The notes below the pieces were generated by a model, which did no database searches, was not told the DNA's origin, and saw only the letters and a program-made list of their open reading frames with translations. Positions 13,566 to 32,538 of a stretch of 64,000 nucleotides of DNA are shown here, in pieces. This DNA is from an uncultured Psychrobacter sp. (GTDB lineage Bacteria > Pseudomonadota > Gammaproteobacteria > Pseudomonadales > Moraxellaceae). Location of the stretch: the NCBI RefSeq assembly GCF_947500265.1, contig NZ_CANMRN010000005.1, positions 159,307 to 223,306 of the forward strand. The letters run 5' to 3'. Position numbers and translations under genes: made by a program. Each line of letters opens with the position of its first letter. Position 1 is the first letter of the stretch.

Positions 13566-13580
13566 ATTGAATAGCTAATA

Positions 13581-14115: not shown

Positions 14116-14134
14116 TATTGCTAAAGCCACTGGA

Positions 14135-14317
14135 TCATTTCAATCCAGCTTGTTTGAAAATACTATTAACAGTACCTTTCGGTAGGTCTTTTTTAGGGTG
14201 TGGGACAGTAACCCTGCCCTTTTTAGTTTTATGCTTGTACTGAAAATGACTACCCTTAGTGGCGACCCAATACCATCCATCTGCTATGAGCATATCTATA
14301 AGCTCGGATGACTTAAT
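14135..14317 (-). CDS. hicA: HicA-family mRNA interferase toxin, 60 codons, ATT in the initiator position
   Basis: Not in the ORF track. Hand translation of the minus strand gives (I)KSSELIDMLIADGWYWVATKGSHFQYKHKTKKGRVTVPHPKKDLPKGTVNSIFKQAGLK*, which is the canonical HicA pattern (MKSSELI..L...GW....kGSH......g...tvPhp.kdl..gt...I.kqaGl). An in-frame TAG lies three codons upstream. AGGAGG lies 5 nt before ATT (14317..14315). Confidence 0.75.
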   Translation of the reverse strand: MKSSELIDMLIADGWYWVATKGSHFQYKHKTKKGRVTVPHPKKDLPKGTVNSIFKQAGLK

Positions 14318-15267: not shown

Positions 15268-15948
15268 TTAGTTTCTATTGCTAAATTGAGATTCGAGTGG
15301 CTTAATATCATAGCCAAAATATTCCTCTATAACGTCTTGCAGGTTATTCATACTGATGTTCAGCTCCTCCTCGTAGCCACTATTGCTGTAAATTTCTAAT
15401 TGGGTATCGCGAATAAATAAAAAGCGTTTACCAACAACCATCGAGAAACGTAACTGGCTACTAAATGGATAGATAATATCGGCAGAAAAGCGGTTTTCAA
15501 TACTGTGATAGATTTCGGTTTCAGACTTTGCGGCAATATCAATTTCCATTTGTTTTTTTTCTACATTACGTTTTCGGTGGTAGACTGTGATCACATCGTT
15601 TTCTATCGTAGTCCTAAAGCGCATACCGTAACACTCATATAAAATGGGGGTTGCGGCTGGGATAAGTTGAATGGATGGCCACCCATTGCCAATATCTGCA
15701 AAGTAGCGCTGGTTGTTTATTTCCAGTCTTACTAGTCGGTGGATATCTTGTCCACCAATGCGAGCAGAGTGCAAGTATGCATCTAACCCAACTGCTTTGG
15801 TTGCATCTAAGTAGCTTAGAGCTTTGTCTGAACAGGTACCGCCATATGCCATCGTTGCAGGGTGTACGTTGTTGAGTAGGTATAAGTTATGAAATGGCTC
15901 TTGCTTAAATTTAGCAAGTAGTATTTGTTGAGCTAAATGCACTGTCAT
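15268..15948 (-). CDS. Arylamine N-acetyltransferase (NAT)-fold acyltransferase-like protein
   Basis: 226 aa. The NAT-like landmarks appear in the right order: FHNLYLL (cf. FENL), YGGTCSDKA (cf. GGYCFELN catalytic Cys), HRLVRLEI (His) and FADIGNGW (cf. DVGFG Asp). The start overlaps the upstream stop (ATGA). Confidence 0.55.
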   Translation of the reverse strand: MTVHLAQQILLAKFKQEPFHNLYLLNNVHPATMAYGGTCSDKALSYLDATKAVGLDAYLHSARIGGQDIHRLVRLEINNQRYFADIGNGWPSIQLIPAATPILYECYGMRFRTTIENDVITVYHRKRNVEKKQMEIDIAAKSETEIYHSIENRFSADIIYPFSSQLRFSMVVGKRFLFIRDTQLEIYSNSGYEEELNISMNNLQDVIEEYFGYDIKPLESQFSNRN

Positions 15949-17381: not shown

Positions 17382-18427
17382 AGTTGCGATTCTTTGTTGA
17401 ACTGTAGCTGATTACGCAATTGCATTAACAGTTCACCTAACCGATTCAAGCCACTACCATCTTCTGCATCGCCCCAATAGCTGTCATTAAGTGTATGTTC
17501 GGCTATGTGATATTGCTGAGTTGATAATAATAACGCTTCAAGTTCAGGGTTCTGAGTAAATTTGGCTGTAAGTGCTTGCAGCATTATATCTTCCTTCATG
17601 TTATGCCAGTTAGGTTGTAGGTGTTGTGACTCTAACTGCTTAGCCATTTGTTTGGCTAACATAGGACTTACTGCACAGCGTATGCGCTCTTGCAATGTAT
17701 GATCTTTAAATTTTTGTGCTTGGTAAAAGTGCTCTGTTGTCGGCCAAATTTTATTATGCAGATAAATGGCATGTTTTGAGAAGTTAGAAAACTCTCCCCA
17801 GGTTTGGTCTGAATGGTAAAATAAAATAGAGTTAATATTGTCATACTCTAAACTTAAAGGCAGGCAGTGCCCTAATTTTTCGTTTTTACTTTTCAAGTAA
17901 TCTATATTTTCAGGCCGTATTTGTGGGTGTGTATTAAGTAGTTCTACTTCGATTCCTGCTTGTTCTAGTGCGCGTCGCTTACGTGGGTTATTTGATACCA
18001 AGCGCACTTGTTTTATTGCCATTTCTTTTAGCACATTTATAGCTGGTGCATAGTCGCGAACATCTTGTTCTAAACCCAGTGCCTCAAATGACTCTGCTGC
18101 ATCTAAAGCTTCACTCTGCATTTTGTATACTGCTTGAATCTTATTAGAAAGGCCCTGTCCACGGCCTTCTTGATGTAAGTGGAAAATGATCCCACTTCCA
18201 TTGTGTGCCATTATTTTCATGGATTCGCGCAATTGGTCGGCACAGTCACAGTCCCTTGCTTCAAATACTTCAGAGGCTAGGCAAGAAGAATGTAATCGCA
18301 GTATTGGTTTACTCTCTAGTTTATTGATATCACCAAAGGTGACTACTCGTAACATTTCGTTGCCGGTATCGTACATTCTAAATGTGCCGTGTGGTGTTGG
18401 GAGTTCGCAGTAATTTTTAAAAGGCAT
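17369..18427 (-). CDS. GTP cyclohydrolase II (RibA) fused to a NADAR/YbiA-type N-glycosidase domain
   Basis: The N-terminal half RLHSSCLASEVFEARDCDCADQLRESM...HLHQEGRGQGLSNKIQAY aligns by eye to E. coli RibA (RVHSECLTGD..CDCGFQLE...RQEGRNIGLLNKIRAY). The C-terminal half FYH..WGEFSNFS...WPTTEHFYQAQKF...SPMLAKQM...NW...AKFTQNPELEALLLST...EHTLNDSYWGD..GSGLNRLGELLMQLR aligns to E. coli YbiA almost motif for motif. Confidence 0.8.
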   Translation of the reverse strand: MPFKNYCELPTPHGTFRMYDTGNEMLRVVTFGDINKLESKPILRLHSSCLASEVFEARDCDCADQLRESMKIMAHNGSGIIFHLHQEGRGQGLSNKIQAVYKMQSEALDAAESFEALGLEQDVRDYAPAINVLKEMAIKQVRLVSNNPRKRRALEQAGIEVELLNTHPQIRPENIDYLKSKNEKLGHCLPLSLEYDNINSILFYHSDQTWGEFSNFSKHAIYLHNKIWPTTEHFYQAQKFKDHTLQERIRCAVSPMLAKQMAKQLESQHLQPNWHNMKEDIMLQALTAKFTQNPELEALLLSTQQYHIAEHTLNDSYWGDAEDGSGLNRLGELLMQLRNQLQFNKESQLCAE

Positions 18428-18428
18428 T

Positions 18429-21400
18429 TTATTCTATTCTCTCAAGGGTTTTCTGATGTGCTTTTGCAAAGCGGTCACTCTGCGGCACTATTTGATTTAA
18501 AAATTCGTAAATATGGCACTCGTTCATTTGTTTAACTTGGGTTTCTAATTTAGTAAAAGCATCTGGGTTAAAAGAGCTAGCCAAGTACTTATACAACTCG
18601 CTCAGTTCTGGATATTTGGATAAAGCTTGCGTTAAACCATTGATTCGGTAAAAACTGAGCCTTAAACGTGAAAGACGAGTATTGCATTCTGATTTGGTCG
18701 CTTTCCATACCTGGCTAATCTCAATATCAGTAAAGACCAAGTTATGTCGTTCGTTATGTCGTAGAAATTCTTGCAGACCAGCGTACAATGCTGATCCCAT
18801 GATTTCGTCCCGTACTTTACTTAAATTCAAAATTGGTTCGTTCTGTATACGCCCAGTATGTTGAACAGGAAATGGTGCACTTTTAATAGTTAGTCCATGG
18901 TAATGTTTATTGACTATTGCCCAGACCATGTCTGAACGGCGAGCTTCACGGCCATTAATCTTAAAAATTAGGTTAGGCGTTTGTATTAAGGCTTTAGCGT
19001 TTAGTACAAAGGTGTTGCCTCCACGGTTTACCGTATCTTTTGCTGCAGCTAATGGAGATGTTGAACATGCTGGAACAATACCACGAGTGAGCGGGAAGCC
19101 CGTGACCAATAAAGGCGCATGTGCAATCAATCGAGAGCGAGCTTCAGTGACACTTTCACCTTTGTAGGCGGGTTCGAGCCAAAATGGTGCTTCAATATGA
19201 GCCGTATGTTTACGAGATAAGTCATAGTAATAATCAGGATACTTATCTCGAAGTATTGTATTTTCGTGGCTGCGATCAGGCAGTTCGATATTGTTTGGTA
19301 TTTTATCAAGCCAGCGTAAGTTATGAAGCAGATCTACCAATTGCCCACGTAGGCCATTTAATGGAGGATTAGGCGATGAGCCTTCGTATTGCCCGATCAC
19401 TATATCGACATCTGCTTGCTTAAACACTGGTAGCCAAGCTAGAAACTGTTTGGCTCGGGAATCTAAACGCATATCGTCATCAAGGATCCAAGCATAGTTA
19501 TTTGGAGTCATTGTACATTTTAAACCAACATATTTTTGCAGCATGCTCCGTGCATGTGCAATTCCCACTTGGCCTTTTGGTCGTTTTGCCAAGTCGGAAC
19601 CAAATAGGCCGCTTGCAGCATCTTCTATCTGTTGTGTTTCGCTTATTATTTTTATATCACCCGCTGACCTTTTACTGAATGAAAGCGTTTCTTTCACGGA
19701 AGTATCTGAACAACCGTTGCATAGCACTATGGAGTTTATACTGGATAAAAAATCACATTGTGCAAGATCAGCAATACTATTTAATAACGGCAATAACTTA
19801 TGCGCATCACCGGTAATCACACCAATAGTTAGAGCAAATGGTTTGGATGGTTTTTCTAGTGGGCCAAGGGGCAACCATGCATCCTGTGCTTGTTTAAGGT
19901 TACAATCAATACCAGTTAAACTTTGACGAAATGCTTGATAGCCCTGCATTTTTGGGATATTTATTGTATACAGAGATTGTCGCATTAAGTGCTTGAGATT
20001 TGGATGATCCACATGATGAATACTTAGATAAGCCCTCCGAGCCATGTGTTCGAACCCTAATTCATTCCATGGGCGAATATCCGCGCCATAATCAATCAGT
20101 TTTACTTCACTCTGGGTTTTTATTAAGTTTTTCGGGTGCATGTTATTACATACAATTCCTGCTTTGCTGCAACTATGTAGCAAGTCAATCACTTGTTCGC
20201 AGTTGCCACCTTGATAAGGGATGCTATTTTCAAAGGGATAAGTGAGTACCAAAGTTTTTCCATCTGATATAACTTCATCAAGAGTATATAAACCAGGTAG
20301 ATTGTACCATTGTGAACTGGACCATTTTAAAAAATTGATTTGCTCAGTAGGTATGTGGATTTTCCAATAGTCAATGCATTTAAAAACACGTTTACCATCT
20401 GTCATGACAACAGCTTCAGAGCCCATACCAAGTAGTAGAAGCTCATGAATACCAAATAGCCTTCTGATACGATCATTAGCTGCATCAATGCGGCATTGTT
20501 TTATTCTATTAGCGAGTGTTGCATGCGGTTTTAAGAGGAGCTCATTACAGCGGTTAGTACATAAATGACGAGCGCCTAAGTCCGTCAGTATTGCTGATAA
20601 ATCGTTCTCGCTTCCAATAGAGCGTTGCTTTTGAAAGTCACCATCTTTTAATACCCATGCGCTATTACCAATATTTTCTTTGGCAACAAATGCTGTGGCT
20701 GTTTCAATACACGTTTGCTGATGGCATAAATTATAGCAAGTAACTCCCAGTTGATTCATCCGCTCAATAAACGCACGCAACTCAATCTGATCTAATTTTT
20801 TATTTGTGGTCAAAACGATATTGAAGCTAACCAGACTTTTTTGACCTAAATGATGAATTTTTTCAATAGCTTGCTCTAATTGGTTAAATAAAAGACTTCC
20901 TAATTCAACGCCAAGAGTTAATGCGATTTGAGATTCCTGTTTTAGTATTGGTTTTGGTAGGGCTTCTGGCTGCCAGAAAAATAGGCGCTGTGCGCGCTCA
21001 AGGAACGCTTTACTTTGATCAGCGCTCATACGTCCATGGTATTTCTGCCAAAAAACTGCTAATCCATTATTCTTGGTTGGTGAGTTTGGTGTACTAAGGC
21101 GTTGACGATCACTATCGGCATAGTGAGTTAGTAGTGGTTTTTTTATATTGCAATAGCGTGTTGTGTCTAATTCACAGAGGCGTATACACAAATCTCGATC
21201 AGTGCAACTTGATAGTTGCTCATCAAAACCGCCTGCCATCAACATAATATCTAGTGATAAGAATAGGTTAGATCCTTGAATACCTGGATTTCCGCACAAG
21301 AACAGTTCCTCATTTATTGAGTCGGGAGGTATACATTTAATAGGCTGCTGTTCATTACCTTCACAACGGTAAAATCCCGCTGCCACTATATTACAATACT

Positions 21401-21806
21401 GTGTGATTACTAACGATTTGCAGTTTTCTAAGTAGTTAGGATGCCATTCATCATCATCGTCAAGAAATGCTAAAAATAGTGAACTGAAATCCTGTTTTTG
21501 TTTGTTGCTAAGGTATTCTATTGCCGTATTCCATGCTCCACTAGCACCTAGAGTTCGCTGGTTTAATAAATATTTAATATGGCAATTAGTTGATGGGATA
21601 GATTCGACTATCAGTCTGTTTTGACACTGGTTTCGGTTAGCAGAATCGTCTACAACAATAATATAGATCGGTGATATGGACTGATTTAATACTGAGTTTA
21701 TAGCTCTTTGTTTTAGTAGACTAGGTCTGTTTTTGGTCGCAATAATCACTGCTATTTGTGGGGCGTTCACACAATACTCCATTGCTAATGAACAACTAGC
21801 TTTCAT
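18429..21806 (-). CDS. 1125-aa multidomain protein: N-terminal GT2 glycosyltransferase, central protein-kinase-like domain, C-terminal second GT-A (DxD) domain
   Basis: GT2: IAVIIATKNRPSLL...IIVVDDS...FLDDDDEW. Kinase-like: LLLGMGSEAVVMTDGKRVFKCI ... NMHPKNLIKTQSEVKLIDYGADI (catalytic-loop and DFG-like). C-terminal: LTIGVITGD...AWILDDDMRLD. The domain borders are approximate (~1-290, ~450-640, ~650-1000). Confidence 0.6.
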   Translation of the reverse strand: MKASCSLAMEYCVNAPQIAVIIATKNRPSLLKQRAINSVLNQSISPIYIIVVDDSANRNQCQNRLIVESIPSTNCHIKYLLNQRTLGASGAWNTAIEYLSNKQKQDFSSLFLAFLDDDDEWHPNYLENCKSLVITQYCNIVAAGFYRCEGNEQQPIKCIPPDSINEELFLCGNPGIQGSNLFLSLDIMLMAGGFDEQLSSCTDRDLCIRLCELDTTRYCNIKKPLLTHYADSDRQRLSTPNSPTKNNGLAVFWQKYHGRMSADQSKAFLERAQRLFFWQPEALPKPILKQESQIALTLGVELGSLLFNQLEQAIEKIHHLGQKSLVSFNIVLTTNKKLDQIELRAFIERMNQLGVTCYNLCHQQTCIETATAFVAKENIGNSAWVLKDGDFQKQRSIGSENDLSAILTDLGARHLCTNRCNELLLKPHATLANRIKQCRIDAANDRIRRLFGIHELLLLGMGSEAVVMTDGKRVFKCIDYWKIHIPTEQINFLKWSSSQWYNLPGLYTLDEVISDGKTLVLTYPFENSIPYQGGNCEQVIDLLHSCSKAGIVCNNMHPKNLIKTQSEVKLIDYGADIRPWNELGFEHMARRAYLSIHHVDHPNLKHLMRQSLYTINIPKMQGYQAFRQSLTGIDCNLKQAQDAWLPLGPLEKPSKPFALTIGVITGDAHKLLPLLNSIADLAQCDFLSSINSIVLCNGCSDTSVKETLSFSKRSAGDIKIISETQQIEDAASGLFGSDLAKRPKGQVGIAHARSMLQKYVGLKCTMTPNNYAWILDDDMRLDSRAKQFLAWLPVFKQADVDIVIGQYEGSSPNPPLNGLRGQLVDLLHNLRWLDKIPNNIELPDRSHENTILRDKYPDYYYDLSRKHTAHIEAPFWLEPAYKGESVTEARSRLIAHAPLLVTGFPLTRGIVPACSTSPLAAAKDTVNRGGNTFVLNAKALIQTPNLIFKINGREARRSDMVWAIVNKHYHGLTIKSAPFPVQHTGRIQNEPILNLSKVRDEIMGSALYAGLQEFLRHNERHNLVFTDIEISQVWKATKSECNTRLSRLRLSFYRINGLTQALSKYPELSELYKYLASSFNPDAFTKLETQVKQMNECHIYEFLNQIVPQSDRFAKAHQKTLERIE

Positions 21807-22127: not shown

Positions 22128-22592
22128 TTATCCTACATTACAACTTGTTAGCGCTGGCGTACCTTTTTTGATGATTTTGATTAAATTAGCACCATCACTT
22201 TCACCCTCATAACTACTACTATAGTATCCGTCGATTTCTATTGTCATTGGAATGCGATAGCACTTCTTTTTATTAAGCTTTAATCTCTCAATCTCAGGAT
22301 TGTCTGACTCAAGCGCAAACTGAGTAGGATAGTTTGTCTTAGATGCTTTGGGAATCATCGCTTTTGATTTGTTATCAACAGTAAATTCAGCCGGAAATCT
22401 TGCTTCGTTAACCATATTATATTCGAGAATTCCTGAGACTACGGTCTTTCCTTTATATCTTGTCAGGCCCTCATTATCCGTAGTGCCGACCTTTAATGGC
22501 GTAGCTGGCTTTGCCGCGGGAGCGGCATAAGCTGATACACCAGTAAGGGCTAATGCTGCTGCTACAGTAAGTGATACCAATTTGTTTTTCAT
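22128..22592 (-). CDS. Secreted hypothetical protein (Sec signal peptide)
   Basis: MKNKLVSLTVAAALALTGVSAYA|AP signal peptide. No family was recognised. Confidence 0.6.
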   Translation of the reverse strand: MKNKLVSLTVAAALALTGVSAYAAPAAKPATPLKVGTTDNEGLTRYKGKTVVSGILEYNMVNEARFPAEFTVDNKSKAMIPKASKTNYPTQFALESDNPEIERLKLNKKKCYRIPMTIEIDGYYSSSYEGESDGANLIKIIKKGTPALTSCNVG

Positions 22593-22676
22593 TTGAAATC
22601 CTTTTGTGGGTTAGCTATTTTGCTGCAATAGTTGGGTTTAGACTGTGTACGTTATCGCATAATACGATTAGAGTAT

Positions 22677-23357
22677 TTAATCAAAAAGACAAGTAAACGT
22701 TTTGTTTTTAGAATTATAGGTTGCACCCATATCTATTATTTCATCCCAATACTCCATCTTGTAAGATTTAAAATTAGGCAAAATAGTGGAGAGATTGGCG
22801 GTTGGTGCGAACTTTAAAGCTTCACCTGCACCTGAAGATTCTGGTCTAAACATAAATACGTATTCCTCTAAAGGCTGGCCGCGATATTTAATACCGTCTT
22901 TGAATATTAGATGATATGCGGTAAACTCACCTCCCTCTTTTATTTTTACTTCCTTTATCGTATCTCGATATGCTGATAACCATTGTGACCTCGGCTTAAC
23001 AAAGTATCGGTAGTCTTGTGATACCCCTTTAATACTATCCTCTAATGACAACTGACTTTGGTCGAAAGTTTTAAAGGATAAATTTTTACCTACACATCCG
23101 CCTTCCATATCACCAAATAAATAAAGCATATCACTTGTTGGTAATTCTTGAGAGCTGCTTATCGCTACTTTATTAGTATCCACAGAAGAGCCACCTAAGC
23201 CTTGTTGTACACCTGCTATAGTGCCTGTCACTACCTCATTCACCAAAGAACCAACACTTTTTACTACTGTTGTGCCCATTGTTTGACTCTCAGCACAGCC
23301 TGATAGAGCAATAAGGCTGCTAATAGCAACCAATGACAACATATGATTCGATTTCAT
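22677..23357 (-). CDS. Lipoprotein, hypothetical (paralogue pair member 1)
   Basis: Lipobox MKSNHMLSLVAISSLIALSGC. The C-terminus is ...KTFTCLFD. Confidence 0.7.
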   Translation of the reverse strand: MKSNHMLSLVAISSLIALSGCAESQTMGTTVVKSVGSLVNEVVTGTIAGVQQGLGGSSVDTNKVAISSSQELPTSDMLYLFGDMEGGCVGKNLSFKTFDQSQLSLEDSIKGVSQDYRYFVKPRSQWLSAYRDTIKEVKIKEGGEFTAYHLIFKDGIKYRGQPLEEYVFMFRPESSGAGEALKFAPTANLSTILPNFKSYKMEYWDEIIDMGATYNSKNKTFTCLFD

Positions 23358-23393
23358 AATTAATCCATTAGCGTTTAAAATACTGAATAAATA

Positions 23394-24149
23394 TTACAGG
23401 TCAAAAGTACAGGTTATCTCATTACCATCATGATCAGAATCTATTAAATTAGGGTACATATCTCTGTTTTCAGGTTTATAAAAGTCTTTGAAGCTTTTAG
23501 CGATACCAAAATCCTTGGATGTACCAGAATTGCTTTCTTCTATCATTGCGAGAACATAAAGAGGCTGATAGCCTTTTTTTTGCCATTTGTAAAAATGCTG
23601 GGAAAAAGGAAAGTCTTCATCTGTATCACAATTAGATTGCACACGCGTTAATTCTTTTTCTCTAAATAGATCTTCAAGCTTATAAACGGCACTTGTTGTT
23701 TCATCTTCTGCTATACCCTGACCAGAACTAATATTAATTAAACTTGGTTTTATTTTAGTGCCATAAGCTACAACATAGCTATGCTCATCTAAGTCACCAA
23801 TGATGGAATAGTTGGTACCTCCATCTAAAGTAGGTATCTTGTTTCGCCATTCTCGCACACCAGGTATTTCAGCCAGCGTCTCCCATTGCCAATCAGTATT
23901 GGGCTTTAAAGCGAGATAATCAGTAATCTTAGAAAATCTAGGTGCGTTTTCTTCTTCGACAACATCTTCTTCAATAACAACGATCTCTTCTTCAGCAACT
24001 GCTGGTTCTACTGCAACCACCTCTTTGTTAACAGCCGAATTTTCAGTAGTAACTTCTTGAGTAGCTTCTGCTTCTTTATTGTCCATACAGCCAGATAACG
24101 CAATAATACTGCTTATAGCAACTAATGATAAAACATGACCTGATTTCAT
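23394..24149 (-). CDS. Lipoprotein, hypothetical (paralogue pair member 2, acidic linker)
   Basis: Lipobox MKSGHVLSLVAISSIIALSGC is nearly identical to that of the neighbouring gene. The C-terminus is ...EITCTFDL. Confidence 0.7.
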   Translation of the reverse strand: MKSGHVLSLVAISSIIALSGCMDNKEAEATQEVTTENSAVNKEVVAVEPAVAEEEIVVIEEDVVEEENAPRFSKITDYLALKPNTDWQWETLAEIPGVREWRNKIPTLDGGTNYSIIGDLDEHSYVVAYGTKIKPSLINISSGQGIAEDETTSAVYKLEDLFREKELTRVQSNCDTDEDFPFSQHFYKWQKKGYQPLYVLAMIEESNSGTSKDFGIAKSFKDFYKPENRDMYPNLIDSDHDGNEITCTFDL

Positions 24150-24360
24150 AGTTAAGCTCTTAATATTGAAAATAAGTGGAAGGACTATAGGAACAAGAAT
24201 TAATCTTTAGCAAAGAATAATGGGTACGAATAAATCTCCATTCATGTACCGAACACTTTTGCAGTTTTAAATTCATTAACCTATGGATCTGCTAAACAAA
24301 TAAAAAAGTCGCCCATTGTTTATATGGACAACTCTTAATGATTTTTTAAAATGCCAATAG

Positions 24361-24750
24361 CTATTTACAGAATTTGGCAAAGAGGTTATTTACTACGGGG
24401 CGAGGTAGCGTGTAATCAGCCATCGCTTCTTTCAGGCTTTTGTAATCTGTATCATTTACTATGTTTGAACTTATTGGGTTTGAACAAGTAATACTTAGCA
24501 CTCCTCTAAAACTACTTGTTTTACCATCAGCTGTTAAAGCAATCAGCAGATTGTCTAGCTTTTTGAGATTAGCGCCTGTATACCCTTCTATTGTCATAGG
24601 ATAAGCAGTCCAAGTAGTGGTATACACACCACCGTCTTGACTAGTATAGACATTAATACCATCTGAAAAATTAGGGGCTGCCAATGCACTAGTAGATACA
24701 AGAAATGATAGGCTCAAGAAAGCTAAAGATAATAAGTAAGTGGATTTCAT
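24361..24750 (-). CDS. Secreted hypothetical protein
   Basis: The track ORF starts at 24807. An internal ATG at 24750 is preceded by GGAG and gives a clean signal peptide, MKSTYLLSLAFLSLSFLVSTSALA|AP. Confidence 0.6.
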   Translation of the reverse strand: MKSTYLLSLAFLSLSFLVSTSALAAPNFSDGINVYTSQDGGVYTTTWTAYPMTIEGYTGANLKKLDNLLIALTADGKTSSFRGVLSITCSNPISSNIVNDTDYKSLKEAMADYTLPRPVVNNLFAKFCK

Positions 24751-25352
24751 TACCGCTCCAATAGTTAACATTCGTCGTGAATTTTTACCTCCTTCATAAT
24801 ATAACACAAATGTTTTATCTTGTTACATAAGCTTAATTAAATGTATTGATAAATATATAAATTTAACAAGTTAGCATCTACCATGTTCTATCATAATTCA
24901 TAAGAAATTATTAAACAGATGATAAGCTCTTTGGTATCGTTATCACATGAGATACTAAAAAAATATCGAATGAATAGTGTGGCTGGCAAGATAGTTTCGA
25001 AATAATTGGCCTATATGCATATATTTAAAATTATTTGGTGCGACTATCTATAATATTACGAGTCTATGAATGGTGTTTATAGATATACTGAAAACTAAAA
25101 AGATATGAATACACTATATTAATAATCTATCTAAACCCATTTGCATAAGGCTTACACCACAAATTGCTAATAATGAAGTTTGTTATGCGTCTTTGTGGAA
25201 ATTGGGGTTTGATATAGGAATGCATTAGGTGTGTCATCTATATACGATTCGTCCATATGATATTTCATCTCTATGCTCACTGCTAATTAATGTTTCTTGG
25301 TATGGTTGGAAGTATTAAATTTTAGTGCGAGTTAAATTATATTCTGTTTCAT

Positions 25353-25805
25353 TTACTTATAGTGCTGGTCATTGATTTGCCTTAGCATATTAATAGTGTT
25401 TATATCGTAACTGCCTGCGTAGAACTGGTATAAAAGCTGCTCAAATACACACTTATTACCAGCGGCAAAGGCAAACAACGTTAGCGAAGACTGCAGCTTC
25501 AGATTGTCCGGTGAACCAAAGATGTTTAAAGCGCTTTTATCAGGGTGCAATAGTAATAATTCAGCGCACTCTATTAACCGTGCACCCAGCACATCATGCT
25601 GCAAATACGCTTGTGCTTGCTCCAAGCTCCCTACTGCAAATCGTCGAGACATTTTGCTATGCCCTAACCCTCTAACCTGTGGAAAGATAAACCACATCCA
25701 ATGCGTACGCTTACGACCTTGGGTCAGCTCTTCAATCACTTGTGAATAGATAGTATCTTGAGCTTTGATAAAATCATCAAACAAATCTTTGTCTATCGTT
25801 GTCAC
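25353..25805 (-). CDS. DUF1810 family protein
   Basis: The signature block GRKRTHWMWFIFPQVRGLGHS...AQAYLQHDVLGARLIEC...IFGSPDNLKLQSSLTLF matches my memory of the DUF1810 family consensus (SHWMWFIFPQ). Confidence 0.7.
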   Translation of the reverse strand: MTTIDKDLFDDFIKAQDTIYSQVIEELTQGRKRTHWMWFIFPQVRGLGHSKMSRRFAVGSLEQAQAYLQHDVLGARLIECAELLLLHPDKSALNIFGSPDNLKLQSSLTLFAFAAGNKCVFEQLLYQFYAGSYDINTINMLRQINDQHYK

Positions 25806-25894
25806 TTTCTACACTCCTTGCACTTTAAGTAATAAGCGTTTACCTATCTGCCACACTCACAACGTAGCTCAAACCATGTATAGTCAATACTAGG

Positions 25895-26572
25895 CTAACC
25901 TGTCACATATATCGCTCCCATCCAGAAATGGTCAGGTTTATCAATCATCCTATTGCCGTAAAACACTTCTACATCATCAGCAATCCAACTTTCAACAGCA
26001 GTTGTGATACTAAAAAACTCATCAAGAGATAACTTATGATCGCTTTCAATATCAAGCAACATATACTGGATACTAAGACCTTCAGGAATTTGATTGAGTA
26101 GAGGATTAACGGCATTTTTTACTTGTTCTGAGTCTGGCTTACCGGTTACACTATTCTGTATAAATTTAGCAATCTTTTCAGACCCGCACGATCTTTTGAT
26201 ATCATTAACATCTATACCAAACTTATCGCGATCAGATAGTATCGATTCAAATACAGTTGTTACCTGCCCAACCTCATCCGCTTTGCAAATAATAATACCG
26301 TCTATAACCTCGAACCTATCGATACATTTACCTGTGGTTTGTAGCGCAAACAATGTGTCCAAACCTGTTTGTTGTTTTAACGCTAGCAATAGCTGTTCAT
26401 TCCAGCCATCTTCGATAACAATAAACCCAACCTCAGACAAACGATAGCTATCTGATTGTGACCTATATAAAGTAGCTAAAGGTATGGGCTCTATCTGAAG
26501 CTCATCATTATGTTCTTTTCTAATGTTGTTCTTTATAGTCTGCTTATCTTCAAAAATACTATCTACTGTCAT
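25895..26572 (-). CDS. Hypothetical protein with a degenerate FtsZ/tubulin-like layout (FtsZ C-terminal-domain-like; GTP-binding glycine loops absent)
   Basis: By eye: FGIDVNDIKR (cf. FtsZ GLINVDFADVRT), NPLLNQI (cf. SPLLE), LSLDEFFSITTAVESWIADDVEVFYGNRMIDK...GAIYVTG (cf. B. subtilis FtsZ LSLYEVQEAADIVASASDQDVNMIFGSVINE...VTVIATG). The N-terminal GFIVIEDGWNEQ occupies the place of IKVIGVGGGGGNA. No GGGTGTG motif is present. Confidence 0.45.
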   Translation of the reverse strand: MTVDSIFEDKQTIKNNIRKEHNDELQIEPIPLATLYRSQSDSYRLSEVGFIVIEDGWNEQLLLALKQQTGLDTLFALQTTGKCIDRFEVIDGIIICKADEVGQVTTVFESILSDRDKFGIDVNDIKRSCGSEKIAKFIQNSVTGKPDSEQVKNAVNPLLNQIPEGLSIQYMLLDIESDHKLSLDEFFSITTAVESWIADDVEVFYGNRMIDKPDHFWMGAIYVTG

Positions 26573-26599
26573 ACTCGGCTCTTCCTTAAAGTAAAATCA

Positions 26600-27691
26600 T
26601 CAATTACGGTTATAAAGCTGCATCCCACTTTCTAGGCGCTCGAGAATAACTGTCTTTAACTCTAATGGTTCAATGACGAAGGACAATTGCGACATACTTA
26701 CCAGCCAATCTTGCAAACGAGTCGTATTAGCAACTGTAGCGCTGACTTGACGCCAAGTGTCGTCGATAATCGTAATCTTCTGATCTATTGATAATGGACG
26801 CTCATAAAGATGCTGACAGGCATATTTCTGTACTTTTAAAACCAAGTTGATTTCAACATTTTTACCAAACTCTAGCTTGCCCAGCTCCTGTAAGCTATCT
26901 AATGTAAAAATGTCACGCCCTACCCAGTCAGGTATTAGCTTATCTATGACTAGTGCCTCGGTAATACGATTGACCGCAAAGTTGCGATGCTCCTCTAGCA
27001 ATACGTCATCATCGATATGATCATCAGCAGAATTAAAGCCAGTGAGATAGATCATATTGTCAATAAAGATCAGTCCTTTGGGATACACCACTCTTTGAGT
27101 TGGTTTTTCTTCCCATTTATTTTGATAGCGTATTCGTAATTGACGATTCTGTAGCAGAGCCTGATGAATACTTTCAAGCACATCACTATCAAGCGTTGGT
27201 GCTTGCACGATACTAGGCAAGGTGATGAGATGGTCTTTCCATTGCCCTAGCGGACTTTGATGAAAGTTATCCTTATCTCGGCGACGTAATTGAGTGAGCT
27301 TGTCTGTGATTTCTTGTTTAAAAGATACTGGTAAGTAGTTTGCGGTATATTTATCCAGCATCTCCCAAAAAAACACGATTTGCTCGTTAATAACATCGAT
27401 GCTAAAGCTGGGTTCAATATAGAAGCGTGCGGTTTGACCTCTGATTTTTTCTCCCCATCTAGGTACTCGAACCAGAGCATCACTATAGAAAATATCGTTA
27501 AAGGTTTGGTTTAAGCCAATCAGATCGTTCTCTAAATTTTTACGCTCACTTGTATAATTGTCATCATTATCACCATAGTTTTGCATAAGCTCTGTTAATG
27601 ACATAGCATCAGCTTCACTACGAGGCAAACATTGATATAAAGCAAATAGGCGTGCTGACTTTGTATAGCTGGCGATTGGATGTGCAGGCAT
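26600..27691 (-). CDS. WYL-domain transcriptional regulator (HTH-WYL-WCX architecture)
   Basis: 363 aa. The N-terminal winged-HTH-like region is SARLFALYQCLPRS...MSLTELMQ. The WYL core is RQLRIRYQNKWEEKPTQRVVYPKGLIFIDNMIYLTGF. Confidence 0.7.
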   Translation of the reverse strand: MPAHPIASYTKSARLFALYQCLPRSEADAMSLTELMQNYGDNDDNYTSERKNLENDLIGLNQTFNDIFYSDALVRVPRWGEKIRGQTARFYIEPSFSIDVINEQIVFFWEMLDKYTANYLPVSFKQEITDKLTQLRRRDKDNFHQSPLGQWKDHLITLPSIVQAPTLDSDVLESIHQALLQNRQLRIRYQNKWEEKPTQRVVYPKGLIFIDNMIYLTGFNSADDHIDDDVLLEEHRNFAVNRITEALVIDKLIPDWVGRDIFTLDSLQELGKLEFGKNVEINLVLKVQKYACQHLYERPLSIDQKITIIDDTWRQVSATVANTTRLQDWLVSMSQLSFVIEPLELKTVILERLESGMQLYNRN

Positions 27692-27745
27692 AGTATTTAC
27701 TCTATTAGACTGATGAAATAATCAACTCATTATTAAAATACAGGC

Positions 27746-28601
27746 TCAATCAAAACGAACCAATATTGCGGTGCCATTGTCATAAGCATTGCCATTGGAA
27801 TTATAAACTTGGTTCTTGAGATTGATTAGCCAATCTTGCAAATCAGTTTCAGCACTGACAAGTTGCCATTCATGACTCGTCACTAAGTCATGGATACCAT
27901 CCGTACAAACCAAGATACAGTCGCCGCTATTAATATCAATCTCGCAAGAGCTGCCTTCTGGTGCTTCAGTGCTTGTATGACTGTCATCAGCTGTCAATAC
28001 AAAGCATTCAGTAATGCTATATAGACTCCCTACCATACCTTCTCGGTTATAATCAGAAAATGCTGCTTGCCGACCTTGCTCTTGTGCCTGTTGGTCAATA
28101 AGTTCGTTTAGCAAGTTATGATCTCGAGTCAGGCACTGCCACTGTGACGCACCTTTAGGCAGCCAGTACACACGGCTATCATCCACATGCATTATCGTTG
28201 ACTTTATGGTTCCATCACCATTTAACTCACAGGCAACCATCGCGAGCGTTGCCGCCGCACCATGACGCTTAGCTGAATGCTTGGTTGATTAATCAGCTGA
28301 TGAATATCATCTGAAGTAATACTCTTCTGATTACCCCATAACCGTCTGATTGCTTTTACCATCGCCTTTGAGCAGCCCTGTGAGTGATTAGAGCTTGCGA
28401 CACCATCAGACACTGCTAAACAAAATGTTGCTACAACTGGTGTCACTGCCATCATACCTAAGTCTTTTTGATACCAATTATCTAAAAAGAAAAGGCGTCT
28501 TGCTGCAGGCTATTACTGGTATTACCTTGGAAGGTAATTGCGCTAGCTTGGGTGATAGATAGAGTTTCTTTTGAAAGAAAATTATTTGAAGAAGCAATCA
28601 T
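27746..28601 (-). pseudogene. PP2C-family Ser/Thr phosphatase gene broken by two frameshifts
   Basis: Three collinear pieces in three frames. (1) 28601..28482: MIASSNNF...GNTSNSLQQDAFSF* (NxD metal motif). (2) 28455..28222: ...ATFCLAVSDGVASS... (DG motif). (3) 28240..27746: GAAATLAMV..VDDSRVYWL..LTRDH..ILVCTDGIHDLV..YDNGTAILVRFD. The first break is at an A5 run (28484-28488), and adding one base restores ..DAFSFLDNWYQKDLGMMAV... The second break lies between ~28262 and 28288. Confidence 0.7.
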
Positions 28602-28633
28602 GATGGTAGGCCTATATGTTTATCATAAAAGCC

Positions 28634-28682
28634 AGTATAGAGGACAACTTGTAAATTTATTTTATAGGTTGCCCTCTATACT
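28634..28682. promoter_or_regulatory. 15-bp inverted repeat (19-bp spacer) in the divergent promoter region between the PP2C/WYL operon and the DUF262 genes
   Basis: AGTATAGAGGACAAC (28634-28648) and GTTGCCCTCTATACT (28668-28682) are complementary at 14 of 15 positions. Confidence 0.45.
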
Positions 28683-28786: not shown

Positions 28787-30268
28787 ATGAGTGAATCAAT
28801 AACGCTCCAGAACAGAACGATAATCTCAGTAAAGCAGTTACTGAGTGAATGTCTACTGACTATCCCTGAGTATCAGCGCCCTTACAAATGGAATCAGCAC
28901 AATATCGCAAGCTTATTCAATGATATTAAGATGCAATGTGACAAGCCAGCCTATCGCCTTGGCACTATCGTGCTTCATAAGTCTAAAGATAAAGATGATA
29001 AAGACGTACTCAATATTGTCGATGGCCAACAGCGCACCCTAACGCTAATGCTCACCGTCATGGCGATTATCAAAAACTATCATCCTGATAATTCAACCAA
29101 ACCTAAAGAAGTAAAAGCTATCGGAAAAATATTAGGCGAACTATCTAATACCGTACCAGCTTTAGCTAAAAAACAAGAGTTTGCTAGCGATATATCCATC
29201 TACAATTTGCATTCAAATTTTCAAGAGATAATACGCATTATCAGCCGTGGTGAGCTAAGTATTGAACATATTGATTTTCTGCTAAATCAGTGTGAGGTGG
29301 TCATCTTTATATTGGAAGATGAATCAGAAGCCTTTCAGTTTTTTGATTCACAGAACTCCCGCGGTAAAGAGCTGTATCCGCATGATTTACTCAAAGCATT
29401 TCATTTACGTGAGTTTAGTGCCTATGATGAACGGCTCAACCCAAATATTAAAGCGCAAACTGTCGCTCATTGGGAAAGCTTAGCAGATGACGAATTGCAC
29501 AGGCTGTTTAGTCAGCATTTATTTAGGATTAAACGCTGGATAGATCATAAACCAGCCCGCAACTTTACCAGTCGTCATGTAGATATTTTTAAAGGGGTGT
29601 CTCTACATAAACAAAATTTACCGCACTATGCAAAAGCTATGATGATCACGCATCATTTTATCGATGATTATAATAGCAATATACACCGTCATATTGATGC
29701 TCAAGCAATGAACTACCCATTTCAGCTAGACCAAAAAATAGTCAACGGTCGTCGTTTTTTTGAAATGGTTGAATATTACGATACGCTTATTGAACGCACT
29801 AAAAAGATTGATATAGCACATACCTCAGAGAATAAAGACAACCATTCCTATGCAACTATCTATAACCAAACCTTGAATGAACGAGCATCGAAGATTGTTA
29901 AGATATTAGATATTTATAGTGATAAGTGGCGTCAGGGTGACAAATATACTCGCAACTTATTTGATAATACTTTGATCTACTATATTGATAAATTTGGTAT
30001 GCAAGACTTATCACAGGTTATAGAGATCATGTTTATTTGGGCATACAAAATACGCCTAAGACAATTTGCGGTAAAACTCGCAACGATGGACAATCATGCA
30101 GTTGACGGTATGTTATTCAAACGTATCAAAGACGCTACATTGCCTAAAGAAGTATGGATCGCTGGTGTTCAACCTCTAAGAGGCAATGACATAAAAGAGT
30201 CTAATAAAAAAACTGATAACGACATATACCAATTATTTGATCACCTCAACTATTTGACTGATAAATAG
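28787..30268 (+). CDS. DUF262 (GmrS/ParB-like NTPase) domain protein
   Basis: IPEYQRPYKW and VDGQQRTLTL are the two hallmark DUF262 motifs. No C-terminal His-Me nuclease motif was seen. Confidence 0.8.
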   Translation: MSESITLQNRTIISVKQLLSECLLTIPEYQRPYKWNQHNIASLFNDIKMQCDKPAYRLGTIVLHKSKDKDDKDVLNIVDGQQRTLTLMLTVMAIIKNYHPDNSTKPKEVKAIGKILGELSNTVPALAKKQEFASDISIYNLHSNFQEIIRIISRGELSIEHIDFLLNQCEVVIFILEDESEAFQFFDSQNSRGKELYPHDLLKAFHLREFSAYDERLNPNIKAQTVAHWESLADDELHRLFSQHLFRIKRWIDHKPARNFTSRHVDIFKGVSLHKQNLPHYAKAMMITHHFIDDYNSNIHRHIDAQAMNYPFQLDQKIVNGRRFFEMVEYYDTLIERTKKIDIAHTSENKDNHSYATIYNQTLNERASKIVKILDIYSDKWRQGDKYTRNLFDNTLIYYIDKFGMQDLSQVIEIMFIWAYKIRLRQFAVKLATMDNHAVDGMLFKRIKDATLPKEVWIAGVQPLRGNDIKESNKKTDNDIYQLFDHLNYLTDK

Positions 30269-30282
30269 AGAAAAATAAAATT

Positions 30283-32538
30283 ATGAAAAACTATAATCCG
30301 AGCGCAACCGAGCAAGTGATACTACTAACACCAAAGGGGCTGCTTAACGGCACCGAGCACTATCTAATTCCGATGTATCAGCGTAATTATGCTTGGGGCA
30401 ATAGTGAGATTGAACAGCTTATTGTCGATATTATGGACGCTCAAATTGATGCGAAAAATTCAAAGGAACATAAGAACTATTATCTAGGTACACTGGTAGT
30501 ATTTGAAAGACCACAACTATCTTCAAAACGTACAGTGTTTGAAGTTATTGACGGTCAACAACGCTTTACTACTCTGAGCTTATTAATCATATATCTAAAG
30601 AATTACTTTACAACTATAGATAGCGACTATGATATGTCATGGTATACAGAACAAAACATTGAGTTTGAAAGCCGTCCGAAATCTACTCAGACGTTAGAGT
30701 TACTACTGAATGACAATCTAGAAACCTATGAGCACCTTCATGAAGCTAAGCTAAATCCCGTTATTATCAACGGCTATACGTCTATTAGAGAAGTAATGGA
30801 AAGTAAATTTTTTTCCCCTAATAATGATAACCAACAACCCACTACAACCCTTCAAGAGTTTTGTGATTATCTATTTCAATATGTACAGATTGCTCGTGTA
30901 CCTGTGCCTGACGAAACGGATTTAAATCATTATTTCGAAGTTATGAATAACCGAGGTGAGCAATTAGAGAAGCATGAAATTATTAAAGCACGTTTGTTGT
31001 CAGTCATTGAAAAGGCAAACGAAAGTGAGATAGCGCTTGCGGACAAACAACCAGTTAAAGCTTTGATTCATGATGTTTGGGAAGCCTGTGCCAATATGAA
31101 TAAATACGTACAGTATGGCTTCAATACTACTTTACGCTTTAAGTTGTTTTCAGAGAATTTAACTCTTTTGCGGCCTAAAGATTTTGATGAACTGCTTAGG
31201 ATATATAAAGACTCTGATAATCCGAACTATTCCCAGCCAGATAATGAACAGTATTCTGACTGTAACAATGATGCTCAAAACAATAAATTGAAGCCACTTC
31301 CTTCTCTTTTCCACATCCTTGAAAATGGTTTTGCCAGTCCACCTAACCCTAGCAATACCGCGGATAAAGAAGAAGATGACGGTAATAGTGAGACTTACTA
31401 TAGCTTAGTGAATTTCTCAAGCTTTCTTTTACATGCTTTGAGAATCATGGTTAACGTGCAGTCCTCATATAAAAAAGACATCGCACTTGATGACAAACAG
31501 CTGCTAACCCAGTTTGAAACCTTTATCTTAAAACCATCCAACTTAGAAAATGCTCACACTTCAAATACTGAGCAAAGTATAGAAACTAACAATCAGATAA
31601 CGCCTTTGTCTCAAGTAAAGACCTTTATATACTCATTACTTAAAAGCAAATTTATCTTTGATCACTTTATAATAAAGCGCAACACTCAAGACAGTAAAGG
31701 ACAATGGACGCTTAATAAGCTAATCAAGAATGAAGATAAAAAAAACAGCTACTACAAAAATAGCTTTGAGACTGACACTGACAAACTAGTGATGTTGCAA
31801 AGTGCTTTTCATGTCTCAACTCCTACTACGAACTATAAGCACTGGCTTAATGCCGTTTTATATTATGCTTGTAAGCATTATAAACATGATGAAATGGGGC
31901 TTAATAGCGTAGCGTATCTTGACTATTTAGAAGAGATAGCTCGCGCCTTTATGTTAAAGCGTTATTTGACTGATGAACCTGATGATTACCATAAAATCAT
32001 TTATCAAACCTCAGACTTCAATAAGCTATTGACTGAACATACCCATGACAACTTGAGTACTGATAATCTACGTATACAAATTAAGCAGTATCTCAGGTAT
32101 GGCAATATCCGCAACATTTTTGTATTTAATTATTTAGATTATCTGCTTTGGTTAAACGGTAACTATCCTAAGTTTACCTTTACCGCTAGAAGCTCTGTAG
32201 AACACTTTTATCCGCAAAATAAGCGAAACGACAGTATATTTTTGGAAGATAAAGACGCAAAAGATTCACTGTTGCACTCTTTTGGTAATTTATGTTTGAT
32301 TAGCCATAGCCTTAATTCACGTGTGAGTAATGATATGCCTGATGTTAAGGTAAAGTATTTCTCACAAAATGGAAATATGCAAAGTGGGCAAATCGATAGC
32401 TTAAAGCTACTGAAAATGATTGATTGCATACAAGGTAAACCAGATGCGTGGGATAAAAAAATAATTGCTCAGCATGAAACTGAAATGTTAAATATTATGC
32501 TGCAAGGGCTAAATTTAGCAGGTGTATCTTATGAGTAA
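30283..32538 (+). CDS. GmrSD-like type IV (modification-dependent) restriction enzyme, DUF262 + DUF1524
   Basis: N-terminus IPMYQRNYAWG and IDGQQRFTTL (DUF262). C-terminus SSVEHFYPQN...HSFGNLCLISHSLNSRVSN (DUF1524 His-Me finger). It starts 14 nt after the upstream DUF262 gene. Confidence 0.85.
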   Translation: MKNYNPSATEQVILLTPKGLLNGTEHYLIPMYQRNYAWGNSEIEQLIVDIMDAQIDAKNSKEHKNYYLGTLVVFERPQLSSKRTVFEVIDGQQRFTTLSLLIIYLKNYFTTIDSDYDMSWYTEQNIEFESRPKSTQTLELLLNDNLETYEHLHEAKLNPVIINGYTSIREVMESKFFSPNNDNQQPTTTLQEFCDYLFQYVQIARVPVPDETDLNHYFEVMNNRGEQLEKHEIIKARLLSVIEKANESEIALADKQPVKALIHDVWEACANMNKYVQYGFNTTLRFKLFSENLTLLRPKDFDELLRIYKDSDNPNYSQPDNEQYSDCNNDAQNNKLKPLPSLFHILENGFASPPNPSNTADKEEDDGNSETYYSLVNFSSFLLHALRIMVNVQSSYKKDIALDDKQLLTQFETFILKPSNLENAHTSNTEQSIETNNQITPLSQVKTFIYSLLKSKFIFDHFIIKRNTQDSKGQWTLNKLIKNEDKKNSYYKNSFETDTDKLVMLQSAFHVSTPTTNYKHWLNAVLYYACKHYKHDEMGLNSVAYLDYLEEIARAFMLKRYLTDEPDDYHKIIYQTSDFNKLLTEHTHDNLSTDNLRIQIKQYLRYGNIRNIFVFNYLDYLLWLNGNYPKFTFTARSSVEHFYPQNKRNDSIFLEDKDAKDSLLHSFGNLCLISHSLNSRVSNDMPDVKVKYFSQNGNMQSGQIDSLKLLKMIDCIQGKPDAWDKKIIAQHETEMLNIMLQGLNLAGVSYE

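Follow-up and report, generated by a model that had tools for sequence, protein, structure and literature searches.

What holds a protein phosphatase, a WYL regulator, an FtsZ-like protein and a DUF1810 protein together in one gene cluster, back to back with a type IV restriction pair? The question is raised by a 64,000-nt stretch of Psychrobacter DNA (the window, in which positions count from the first letter). We compared it with 46 fetched loci that carry homologues of its proteins (L001-L046), using tblastn and HMM maps and Pfam-annotated neighbourhoods, and searched the module proteins against the profile libraries Pfam, NCBIfam and PADLOC-DB 2.0. We call the family of the 225-aa FtsZ-like protein FtsZL, the 225-aa copy FtsZL-A and a second paralogue FtsZL-B. 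The answer that we favour, with somewhat better than even confidence, is that the module is the WYL-controlled backbone of a defence island, that its payload is a predicted GTPase-dead mimic of FtsZ, and that it is partly decayed in the window. We regard the window genes as the remnant of a five-gene operon, composed of a promoter/operator, PP2C, WYL, FtsZL-A, DUF1810 and FtsZL-B, which forms the fixed backbone of a hypervariable Psychrobacter defence island.

An initial annotation of the window had described four co-directional minus-strand genes divergent from a DUF262 pair, namely a broken PP2C phosphatase followed by three intact genes for a WYL regulator, a degenerate FtsZ-like protein and a DUF1810 protein. 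It had proposed that they were an uncharacterised accessory system or a regulatory unit for the neighbouring restriction genes. The coordinates and the gaps between the four genes (54, 27 and 89 nt) match the open reading frame (ORF) listing exactly; the WYL, FtsZL-A and DUF1810 ORFs are whole and the PP2C gene is frameshifted. The count of four genes stands for the window, and the normal unit also holds FtsZL-B, of which the window keeps only a stump. The order PP2C-WYL-FtsZL-A-DUF1810(-FtsZL-B) was found at ~25 Psychrobacter loci from more than 20 species, with dS from 0.3 to above 1, and it was kept in all Psychrobacter loci with enough sequence, save for local loss or decay. In its canonical form the backbone reads PP2C, WYL, FtsZL-A, DUF1810, zero to two PDDEXK_4 genes and FtsZL-B, often with a co-directional GmrSD-like pair. 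The close homologues of the window proteins were all from Psychrobacter, and all module genes are under purifying selection. The joint occurrence of 225-aa, DUF1810 and WYL homologues in other genomes, on which the annotation had staked its proposal, was thus borne out by a shared gene order; with purifying selection, a defence-island setting and absence from PADLOC, it supports the accessory-system reading. That four unrelated genes lie side by side by chance is hardly credible and is refuted by this synteny, since the order recurs together with its upstream operator over the same range of species and divergence, and gene pairings also recur in re-shuffled architectures. At least four architectures combine FtsZL with WYL, and two combine it with PP2C.

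FtsZL, not the whole gene set, is the conserved hub of the module. FtsZL-A is present in every Psychrobacter-type locus, truncated or broken-looking in three of them (L008, L012 and L026). As a single sequence it gave only sub-threshold matches, to FtsZ_C in Pfam and to TIGR00065 in NCBIfam. An exhaustive profile search of 1.84 billion proteins yielded 74 cluster representatives of the family. When AlphaFold2 was given an alignment of 36 diverse members, distant homologues included (A3), FtsZL-A was modelled with a pLDDT of 85 and a pTM of 0.80; with close homologues only (A2), the pLDDT was 42 and the model unusable. Foldseek with the A3 model returned FtsZ for all of the top 50 PDB matches (E down to 3e-10, query-normalised TM 0.39-0.56), and the best matches in the viral set BFVD were phage FtsZ and tubulin. 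The profile search that the initial annotation had suggested for the 225-aa protein found FtsZ among PDB sequences at E 5.2e-8 (A3 profile 85-196 against FtsZ 180-291), and hhalign aligned FtsZL-A 111-213 with E. coli FtsZ 199-302 at E 4.9e-5 over 99 columns. AlphaFold2, Foldseek, the profile search and hhalign all point to FtsZ, in keeping with the earlier label of a degenerate FtsZ-like protein; by profile and by predicted fold, FtsZL-A is an FtsZ-derived homologue. A match to QatB in PADLOC (E 0.013) was discarded as spurious, QatB being a four-helix bundle without known homologues (PMC13376578).

The two ends of the FtsZ subunit are represented unequally in FtsZL-A. The model shows the two-domain FtsZ plan, with an N-terminal Rossmann-like domain, a core helix H7 and a C-terminal domain, and homology at the sequence level spans H7 through the C-terminal domain only. 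In FtsZ, the T7 loop on the 'bottom' of the subunit completes the GTPase site of its neighbour (PMC7010359). The T7 segment of FtsZL-A, GIDVNDIK, aligns with NVDFADVR of FtsZ, so that D121 corresponds to D209 and D124 to D212, with N207 replaced by Gly; the family consensus at this loop is GIDxxDI. The FtsZ segment LRLDEF is LSLDEF in the hhalign alignment, retaining LxLDEF. Of the N-terminal domain, the model retains only four strands and one helix, and no glycine-rich motif corresponding to the T1 glycine loop or to the T4 signature GGGTG[ST]G was found in FtsZL-A or in the family alignment. At the places where T1 and T4 would be expected we read 'EDGW' and 'ALQTTGK' (family pattern ALQTTxK) by inspection, without structural alignment. 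Cys96 (C96) is invariant across the family alignment. FtsZL-A thus keeps the 'bottom' T7 face and the C-terminal domain without the motifs of the nucleotide-binding 'top', and FtsZL is predicted not to bind GTP and to be GTPase-dead. Among the operon genes FtsZL-A evolves fastest (dN/dS 0.26-0.45). Of ten longer FtsZL representatives scanned, eight carry N-terminal leucine-rich repeats (LRRs), and one has a C-terminal FtsK ATPase.

No other gene of the operon is as strongly constrained as DUF1810 (dN/dS 0.10-0.22). It matched PF08837 at 1.3e-51 over model positions 5-136 of 136 and PDB entry 2JEK (Rv1873) at 4.9e-39. Within the Psychrobacter-type set it is missing from L003 and L028 and comes after FtsZL-A at every other locus. 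It is not universal, being absent in P. submarinus, L028, L030, L044 and L046. After DUF1810, most loci have a full-length FtsZL-B of 208-219 aa, 30-36% identical to FtsZL-A. The stump of this gene in the window was identified by tblastn with the FtsZL-B N-terminus of L001 (65% over 20 aa) and by direct reading of the sequence. PADLOC had no match for intact PP2C, FtsZL-B or DUF1810, and the FtsZL family is uncatalogued in Pfam, NCBIfam and PADLOC. Literature searches returned nothing relevant on DUF1810 or on WYL with PP2C in defence, just a jumbo-phage review on FtsZ-like proteins in an anti-phage context, and no publication on the P. arcticus locus tags of the module.

The phosphatase is the gene in which decay is most evident. 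Compared at the DNA level with four intact 285-aa orthologues, the window copy is broken by exactly two 1-nt deletions (~28494/28495 and ~28286/28287), both in short homopolymer runs, and the first of them gives rise to an early TAG stop (28482-28484). All four Asp metal motifs (SDGV, GDSR, TDG and DNG) are preserved in the orthologues; in the window GDSR has become DDSR by a Gly-to-Asp change. PP2C_2 (PF13672) scored 1.2e-9 for an intact orthologue and 1.3e-3 for the window fragment. With an intact frame and full metal motifs the orthologues qualify as PP2C (PPM) phosphatases and the window copy does not; unless the frameshifts are sequencing errors, it is a pseudogene. The dN/dS of pairs that include the window copy (0.17-0.27) barely exceeds that of intact pairs (0.13-0.23), which argues that the inactivation is either very recent or a sequencing artefact. 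A generally error-prone assembly was considered as the cause and rejected: the overlapping ORFs at 53.4-55.7 kb are separate genes, encoding dioxygenase alpha and beta subunits and SnoaL. There is no sign of general frameshift error in the assembly, and a sequencing error in PP2C itself is still possible.

These lesions suggest that the module might be an inactive relic in the window, its ORFs intact only because decay is recent, a possibility compatible with any functional reading elsewhere. We judge it doubtful, though worth serious attention. The two frameshifts and the motif substitution in PP2C, the reduction of FtsZL-B to a stump and the decay of components in many other genomes all favour it. 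On the other hand, the window has intact copies of WYL, FtsZL-A and DUF1810, an intact operator and an intact GmrSD pair. The same FtsZL-B deletion is found in L038-41, where PP2C is intact, so the configuration persists across lineages, and FtsZL-A and DUF1810 are constrained in genomes without PP2C. Finally, the homopolymer-run frameshifts could be sequencing errors, and no other split or broken genes were seen in the window.

The second gene encodes a protein with a WYL domain (PF13280, 1.1e-13, residues 170-246) and a WCX domain (PF25583, 7.1e-7, residues 281-354), both above the Pfam cut-offs, which upholds the call of a WYL regulator. PADLOC WYL models matched it at 1e-22 and 6e-11. The second of these models, PDLC01457, aligns with residues 12-249, and an HTH_11-like pattern (…SLTELM…SERKNLENDL…) was recognised by eye only; we infer an N-terminal winged helix-turn-helix (wHTH). 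Identity of the protein is 63-91% among Psychrobacter-type loci and 24% to the copy in L046, and dN/dS is 0.07-0.31. Defence systems adjoin the WYL gene across loci.

A candidate binding site for this regulator was found upstream of PP2C, where even the most divergent Psychrobacter-type loci share 140 nt of conserved sequence. The conserved segment holds three elements: an 11-5-11 palindrome with the consensus CAACCTrTAAA-N5-TTTAyAGGTTG, a TATACT -10-like hexamer and a leader inverted repeat. Within the window the core palindrome occurs once at up to 3 mismatches (0.01 expected), and 32 of the fetched loci have one site each, giving 33 sites with the window against 1-3 by chance in 703 kb. It is placed upstream of PP2C or, where PP2C is deleted, upstream of WYL or its remnant. 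Its geometry is that of the R-BOX of BrxR, in which 11-bp repeat arms are inverted around a 5-bp spacer and for which binding is experimentally established (PMC9122601). In the leader repeat, the pattern GCCTnTATG-N5-CATATAGGC is preserved ahead of PP2C at almost every locus; the repeat may serve as a second operator or form a hairpin in the 5'UTR.

The divergent side of this region is what ties the module to the restriction pair. The PP2C and GmrSD_N/DUF7834 start codons are separated by 185 nt, in which one TATACT (28677-28682, plus strand) points toward the GmrSD pair and another (28639-28634, minus strand) toward PP2C; we infer that both hexamers act as -10 boxes. The mirrored left arm that extends the palindrome to 22-5-22 was present at every locus with a divergent DUF262-type pair (the window, L005, L007, L008, L011, L014, L026 and L038-40) and absent from loci without a divergent partner. 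As far as its sequence tells, the extended palindrome marks a bidirectional promoter governed by a single predicted operator. The 22-5-22 palindrome and the second TATACT are the strongest evidence here for a predicted co-regulation of module and restriction pair, and the earlier suggestion of a regulatory unit for the restriction genes gains support from a palindrome shared within the divergent region. Features of the locus are collected in Table 1.

Table 1. Genes and predicted regulatory elements of the module in the 64,000-nt window
Feature	Position	Strand	Description
FtsZL-B stump	25167-25268	-	33 codons, MKYHMDESYIDDTPNAFLYQTP..., then stop
DUF1810 (Rv1873-like)	25353-25805	-	150 aa, intact; PF08837
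FtsZL-A	25895-26572	-	225 aa, intact; fold and profile homology to FtsZ
WYL regulator (wHTH-WYL-WCX)	26600-27691	-	363 aa, intact; PF13280 and PF25583; wHTH inferred
PP2C pseudogene, first operon gene	27746-28601	-	Fragments 27746-28240 and 28222-28455; ancestral ATG at 28601
Second inverted repeat	28609-28633	-	GGCTTTTATG-ATAAA-CATATAGGCC, between -10 and PP2C start codon
Extended palindrome	28634-28682		22-5-22 inverted repeat, 86% complementary, two mirrored TATACT
Core operator	28645-28671		11-5-11 palindrome CAACTTGTAAA-TTTAT-TTTATAGGTTG; predicted WYL binding site
GmrSD_N (DUF262) + DUF7834 protein	28787-30268	+	493 aa; first gene of divergent pair
GmrSD_N + GmrSD_C protein	30283-32538	+	751 aa; second gene of divergent pair

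The proteins of the divergent pair are of GmrSD type, with a DUF262 N-terminal domain in both and a DUF1524 His-Me nuclease domain in the 751-aa protein. The 493-aa protein matched PF03235 at 1e-30 and PF25202 at 4.6e-67, and in PADLOC the HEC-06, Orf5 and SspE-type N-terminal domains; the 751-aa protein matched PF03235 at 8.5e-32 and PF07510 at 4.3e-12. A DGQQR motif was read from both translations. DUF262-type pairs stand beside the module in three arrangements. The window-type pair, with 88-99% identity, is divergent from PP2C in L005, L007, L014, L026 and L038-40; a 614/841-aa pair is likewise divergent; and a 37%-identical pair lies downstream and co-directional in L001, L015, L018, L025 and L028. 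Recognised defence genes sit inside and around the operon, and the flanking systems differ from genome to genome. They include Wadjet, CBASS, type I restriction-modification (R-M), PLD-helicase and GmrSD, and further BrxC, HmaA, type I R-M with embedded HEC-05, DUF262 pairs and RtcR. In L008 the module occupies a BrxR-like position upstream of BREX. An integrase is found at the island edge in several genomes, and the GC content is 35-38% in the island region against 41-44% elsewhere in the window.

PDDEXK_4 genes (candidate system PDC-S26 in PADLOC) were observed inserted in the operon in L036, L022, L005, L014, L020, L021, L029, L030 and L046, for example at L036:7698-8864, 11248-12519 and 13154-14185. 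The insertion points are PP2C/WYL, WYL/FtsZL and DUF1810/FtsZL-B, with up to three such genes per island, and they resemble plug-in cassettes.

An operator common to the divergent GmrSD pair, the BrxR-like position in L008 and defence cassettes in line within the operon could also mean that the module is a purely regulatory cassette, in which PP2C, FtsZL and DUF1810 serve WYL as signal-processing accessories in the control of GmrSD, PDC-S26, BREX and other systems and have no effector activity. BrxR itself regulates and takes no part in defence (PMC9122601). We nevertheless think this unlikely. FtsZL-A, DUF1810 and FtsZL-B are intact and constrained where WYL and/or PP2C are truncated; the FtsZL of L044 has SIR2 and PP2C partners and no WYL; and fusions of FtsZL to LRRs or to an FtsK ATPase are typical of sensor or effector proteins, not of co-regulators.

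The fate of the regulators in other genomes indicates which genes are the payload. PP2C is lost or broken in ~9 loci and WYL in ~8. Between genomes without WYL and/or PP2C, FtsZL-A and DUF1810 are intact with dN/dS of 0.14-0.5. Because they stay constrained in regulator-less genomes, FtsZL and DUF1810 are best seen as the selected payload and PP2C and WYL as dispensable control. Since FtsZL persists intact where PP2C or WYL has been lost, it is also unlikely to be a potent toxin checked only by one of them, and an essential role of PP2C as antidote to FtsZL is ruled out by the ~9 loci in which FtsZL is intact and PP2C lost or decayed. In L017 and L025 a deletion has removed PP2C along with the 5' half of WYL and spared the operator. 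There we observed the operator/promoter fused to a 3' fragment of WYL (L017:9419-9497 and L025:9420-9498) ahead of intact FtsZL-A, DUF1810 and FtsZL-B, a fusion that may lead to constitutive payload expression.

Among distant FtsZL homologues, these partners recur in new combinations. The orders are WYL-PDDEXK_4-(LRR)FtsZL in L030, WYL-x-PDDEXK_4-FtsZL in L046 and WYL-(LRR)FtsZL-DUF1810-FtsZL-B-GmrSD_N in L035. On the L044 contig, which carries a phage tape-measure gene, PP2C (205 aa), SIR2 (281 aa) and FtsZL (222 aa) form a cluster at 6392-8669 near phage tail genes. There FtsZL is immediately preceded by the Psychrobacter-type operator, and no gene for WYL was in view on the contig, which suggests that this FtsZL may be controlled in trans by a regulator of the host.

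Taken as a defence backbone, the module could work as follows. By analogy with BrxR and CapW (PMC9122601, PMC9122588, PMC11662680), a WYL dimer on the palindrome would repress both divergent promoters. Single-stranded DNA (ssDNA) or DNA damage from infection would release WYL from the palindrome, and the GmrSD pair and the FtsZL/DUF1810 payload would then be expressed together. FtsZL would act as a non-extendable mimic of an FtsZ/tubulin subunit, docking through its kept T7 face on the GTP face of a polymer; its target might be host FtsZ, leading to division arrest or abortive infection, or a phage tubulin. Alternatively, FtsZL could be a bait in the shape of FtsZ, coupled to effectors in cis or as neighbours; the LRR fusions and the SIR2, PD-(D/E)XK and GmrSD genes nearby would suit such a division into sensor and effector. 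The recurrence of a PP2C-FtsZL link in two independent architectures makes it probable that PP2C modulates FtsZL through dephosphorylation.

Among the effectors noted in conflict systems are inactive cell-division domains and, rarely, domains of the FtsZ/tubulin type (PMC7159879). A more specific form of the immune reading, which we put forward as a speculation with little probability, is that FtsZL proteins form a novel class of immune component, FtsZ-shaped baits or caps that do not bind GTP, keep the T7 face and C-terminal domain (the surfaces hit by division inhibitors) and are gated by WYL and PP2C. As baits, they would be decoys that catch phage-encoded FtsZ inhibitors or phage tubulins and then license SIR2, PD-(D/E)XK/PDC-S26 or GmrSD effectors linked to them; LRR fusions could add sensing and widen recognition. 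As caps, they would cap host FtsZ filaments and halt the division of infected cells.

A division inhibitor under WYL control need not serve immunity. The module could instead be a DNA-damage checkpoint, in which WYL senses ssDNA and induces an FtsZ-mimicking division inhibitor, its location in islands being incidental. There is precedent in DriD-DidA of Caulobacter and DdaA-AciT of Acinetobacter, where the response to DNA damage includes division inhibitors that WYL regulators switch on; Acinetobacter is without LexA/SulA (PMC13010146). The polymer-interface elements of FtsZ are kept in FtsZL, and in L033 the minimal conserved unit is WYL and FtsZL among housekeeping-type genes. We find a checkpoint as improbable as a regulatory cassette, however. 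The distribution is patchy, genes decay often and the defence neighbours change by genome; there are also LRR fusions, partners of SIR2 and PD-(D/E)XK type, a copy borne by a prophage, and fast evolution. All this is more in keeping with a conflict system than with a core checkpoint. Moreover, the operator differs from the DdaA/DriD motif CGAC-N7-GTCG, and Moraxellaceae already have a described core DNA-damage-response regulator, DdaA.

Several observations weigh against a WYL-repressed defence backbone with an FtsZ-mimicking payload. WYL is lost and FtsZL intact in L009, L017, L023, L025, L029 and L035. Such repeated loss would be hard to tolerate if WYL were a repressor and FtsZL a strong toxin, so FtsZL is unlikely to be a strong constitutive toxin, or else WYL works as an activator. 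A generic scan for sigma-70 promoters and terminators performed no better than on shuffled sequence and did not single out the proposed promoters. Pfam detected no wHTH in the WYL protein; phmmer against PDB found nothing at E up to 1, and a profile search of PDB gave just weak matches to PafBC/PafC WYL domains (E 0.07-0.9), so the protein is not assignable as an orthologue of BrxR or CapW. The N-terminal half of FtsZL matches FtsZ by fold alone, and the predicted loss of GTP binding is read from missing motifs. The family is small and has so far been seen in Moraxellaceae only, and narrow search patterns in IMG/VR found no relative of Psychrobacter-type (A1) or L044-type (P0155) FtsZL. Lastly, two remote relatives have housekeeping neighbours, which the initial annotation had named as a sign against its proposal. 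In L033, FtsZL is convergent with WYL among housekeeping-type genes. In L042, an unannotated 241-aa protein comes after FtsZL, a SpoU methylase and TrkA/TrkH lie to either side, and neither WYL nor defence genes are present. That sign was found for these two only, and the Psychrobacter-type loci stand in defence islands. The L042 homologue (Moraxella sp., 8001-9426, 224 aa), whose 90% cluster has 191 members, may represent a housekeeping branch of the FtsZL family.

Other genes around the module in the window deserve mention. On the minus strand at 22128-24807 are four small proteins of 154, 226, 251 and 148 aa with signal-peptide- or lipoprotein-like N-termini and no Pfam or NCBIfam match. 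Homologues of the 226- and 251-aa proteins, together with WG_beta_rep proteins, occur on the PP2C side of the module in other Psychrobacter, which implies that the module in the window is inverted relative to that backbone. Beside the island lies a four-gene cluster (15268-21806, minus strand) which is found after the module in L038-39 as well. Its products are a 1125-aa protein whose N-terminal domain is a GT2 glycosyltransferase and whose mid-region shows, by eye, kinase-like motifs (HPKNLI…IDYG), a 352-aa GTP cyclohydrolase II-NADAR fusion, a 478-aa asparagine-synthase-like amidotransferase and a 226-aa N-acetyltransferase-like protein. Farther away, also on the minus strand, are a HicB-like antitoxin gene (13581-13991; PF15919, 3e-45) and, at 1493-10812, a RecB-like protein of 1516 aa (UvrD helicase and PDDEXK_1) and a RecC-like protein of 1506 aa. 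E. coli RecB has ~1180 aa and RecC ~1122 aa, and the window genes are thus much longer.

The regulatory logic proposed here is of a known kind; what is uncatalogued is a predicted GTPase-dead FtsZ family as payload, accompanied by PP2C and DUF1810. WYL regulators are known as gatekeepers of defence islands, and their targets beyond catalogued systems are largely unexplored. The module offers a concrete case in which one predicted operator and a mirrored bidirectional promoter would serve both a pair of type IV restriction genes and another payload. If FtsZL does act on or mimic FtsZ/tubulin polymers, the cytoskeleton would be directly linked to bacterial immunity, and DUF1810 (the Rv1873 family) would gain its first functional context, within the narrow taxonomic range of the Moraxellaceae.

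The known systems closest to the module include those governed by BrxR/CapW-type regulators (PMC9122601, PMC9122589, PMC9122588, PMC11662680). The module shares with them a protein with WYL and WCX domains, embedding in defence islands beside BREX, GmrSD-type, CBASS and other systems, and, ahead of the regulator's own operon, 11-bp inverted arms around a 5-bp spacer that overlap the promoter. A WYL regulator and a GmrSD enzyme (BrxU) are also joined in the pEFER island. However, the WYL protein of the module has no detectable close sequence relation to the solved BrxR and CapW structures, and its gene is second in the operon, after PP2C and before the FtsZ-like and DUF1810 genes, an arrangement undescribed in those systems.

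With FtsZ, FtsZL shares the predicted two-domain fold, the homology of H7, T7 loop and C-terminal domain, both T7 Asp residues and LxLDEF, and its subunit is predicted to be dockable and non-extendable. It differs in its length of 225 aa, in an N-terminal part of about four strands and one helix, and in having neither the T1/T4 glycine loops nor a C-terminal tail for FtsA/ZipA; it is also accessory, island-borne, duplicated and LRR-fused and not a division gene. In FtsZ we take L272 to be a residue of the bottom face. SulA and MciZ antagonise FtsZ at its polymer interface with folds unrelated to FtsZL, and 'capper' mutants of that interface are a further parallel; capping by FtsZL is hypothetical.

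The DriD-DidA and DdaA-AciT pathways (PMC4211646, PMC13010146) likewise combine a WYL regulator with a protein that interferes with division, as FtsZL would be expected to do, and they bear on Moraxellaceae, which are without LexA/SulA. DidA and AciT are small membrane proteins that, unlike FtsZL, have no homology to FtsZ. The regulators DdaA and DriD act as activators and bind a motif unlike the operator described here, whereas the module is accessory and linked to defence islands. Kaur, Burroughs, Iyer and Aravind (2020; PMC7159879) listed, as effectors of NTP-dependent conflict systems, ATPase domains of MinD/ParA and FtsK type that are predicted to be inactive, together with rare domains of the FtsZ/tubulin kind, the activity of the latter unaddressed; the FtsZL homologue fused to an FtsK ATPase is a point of contact. 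Their systems are built on MoxR-vWA or GTPases in multicellular prokaryotes, whereas the partners here are WYL, PP2C, DUF1810, LRR, SIR2 and PD-(D/E)XK. Of the type IV enzymes of GmrSD/BrxU type and of PDC-S26 (PDDEXK_4), the neighbouring and embedded genes are clear members, and we regard them as interchangeable cargo of the module, not as the module itself.

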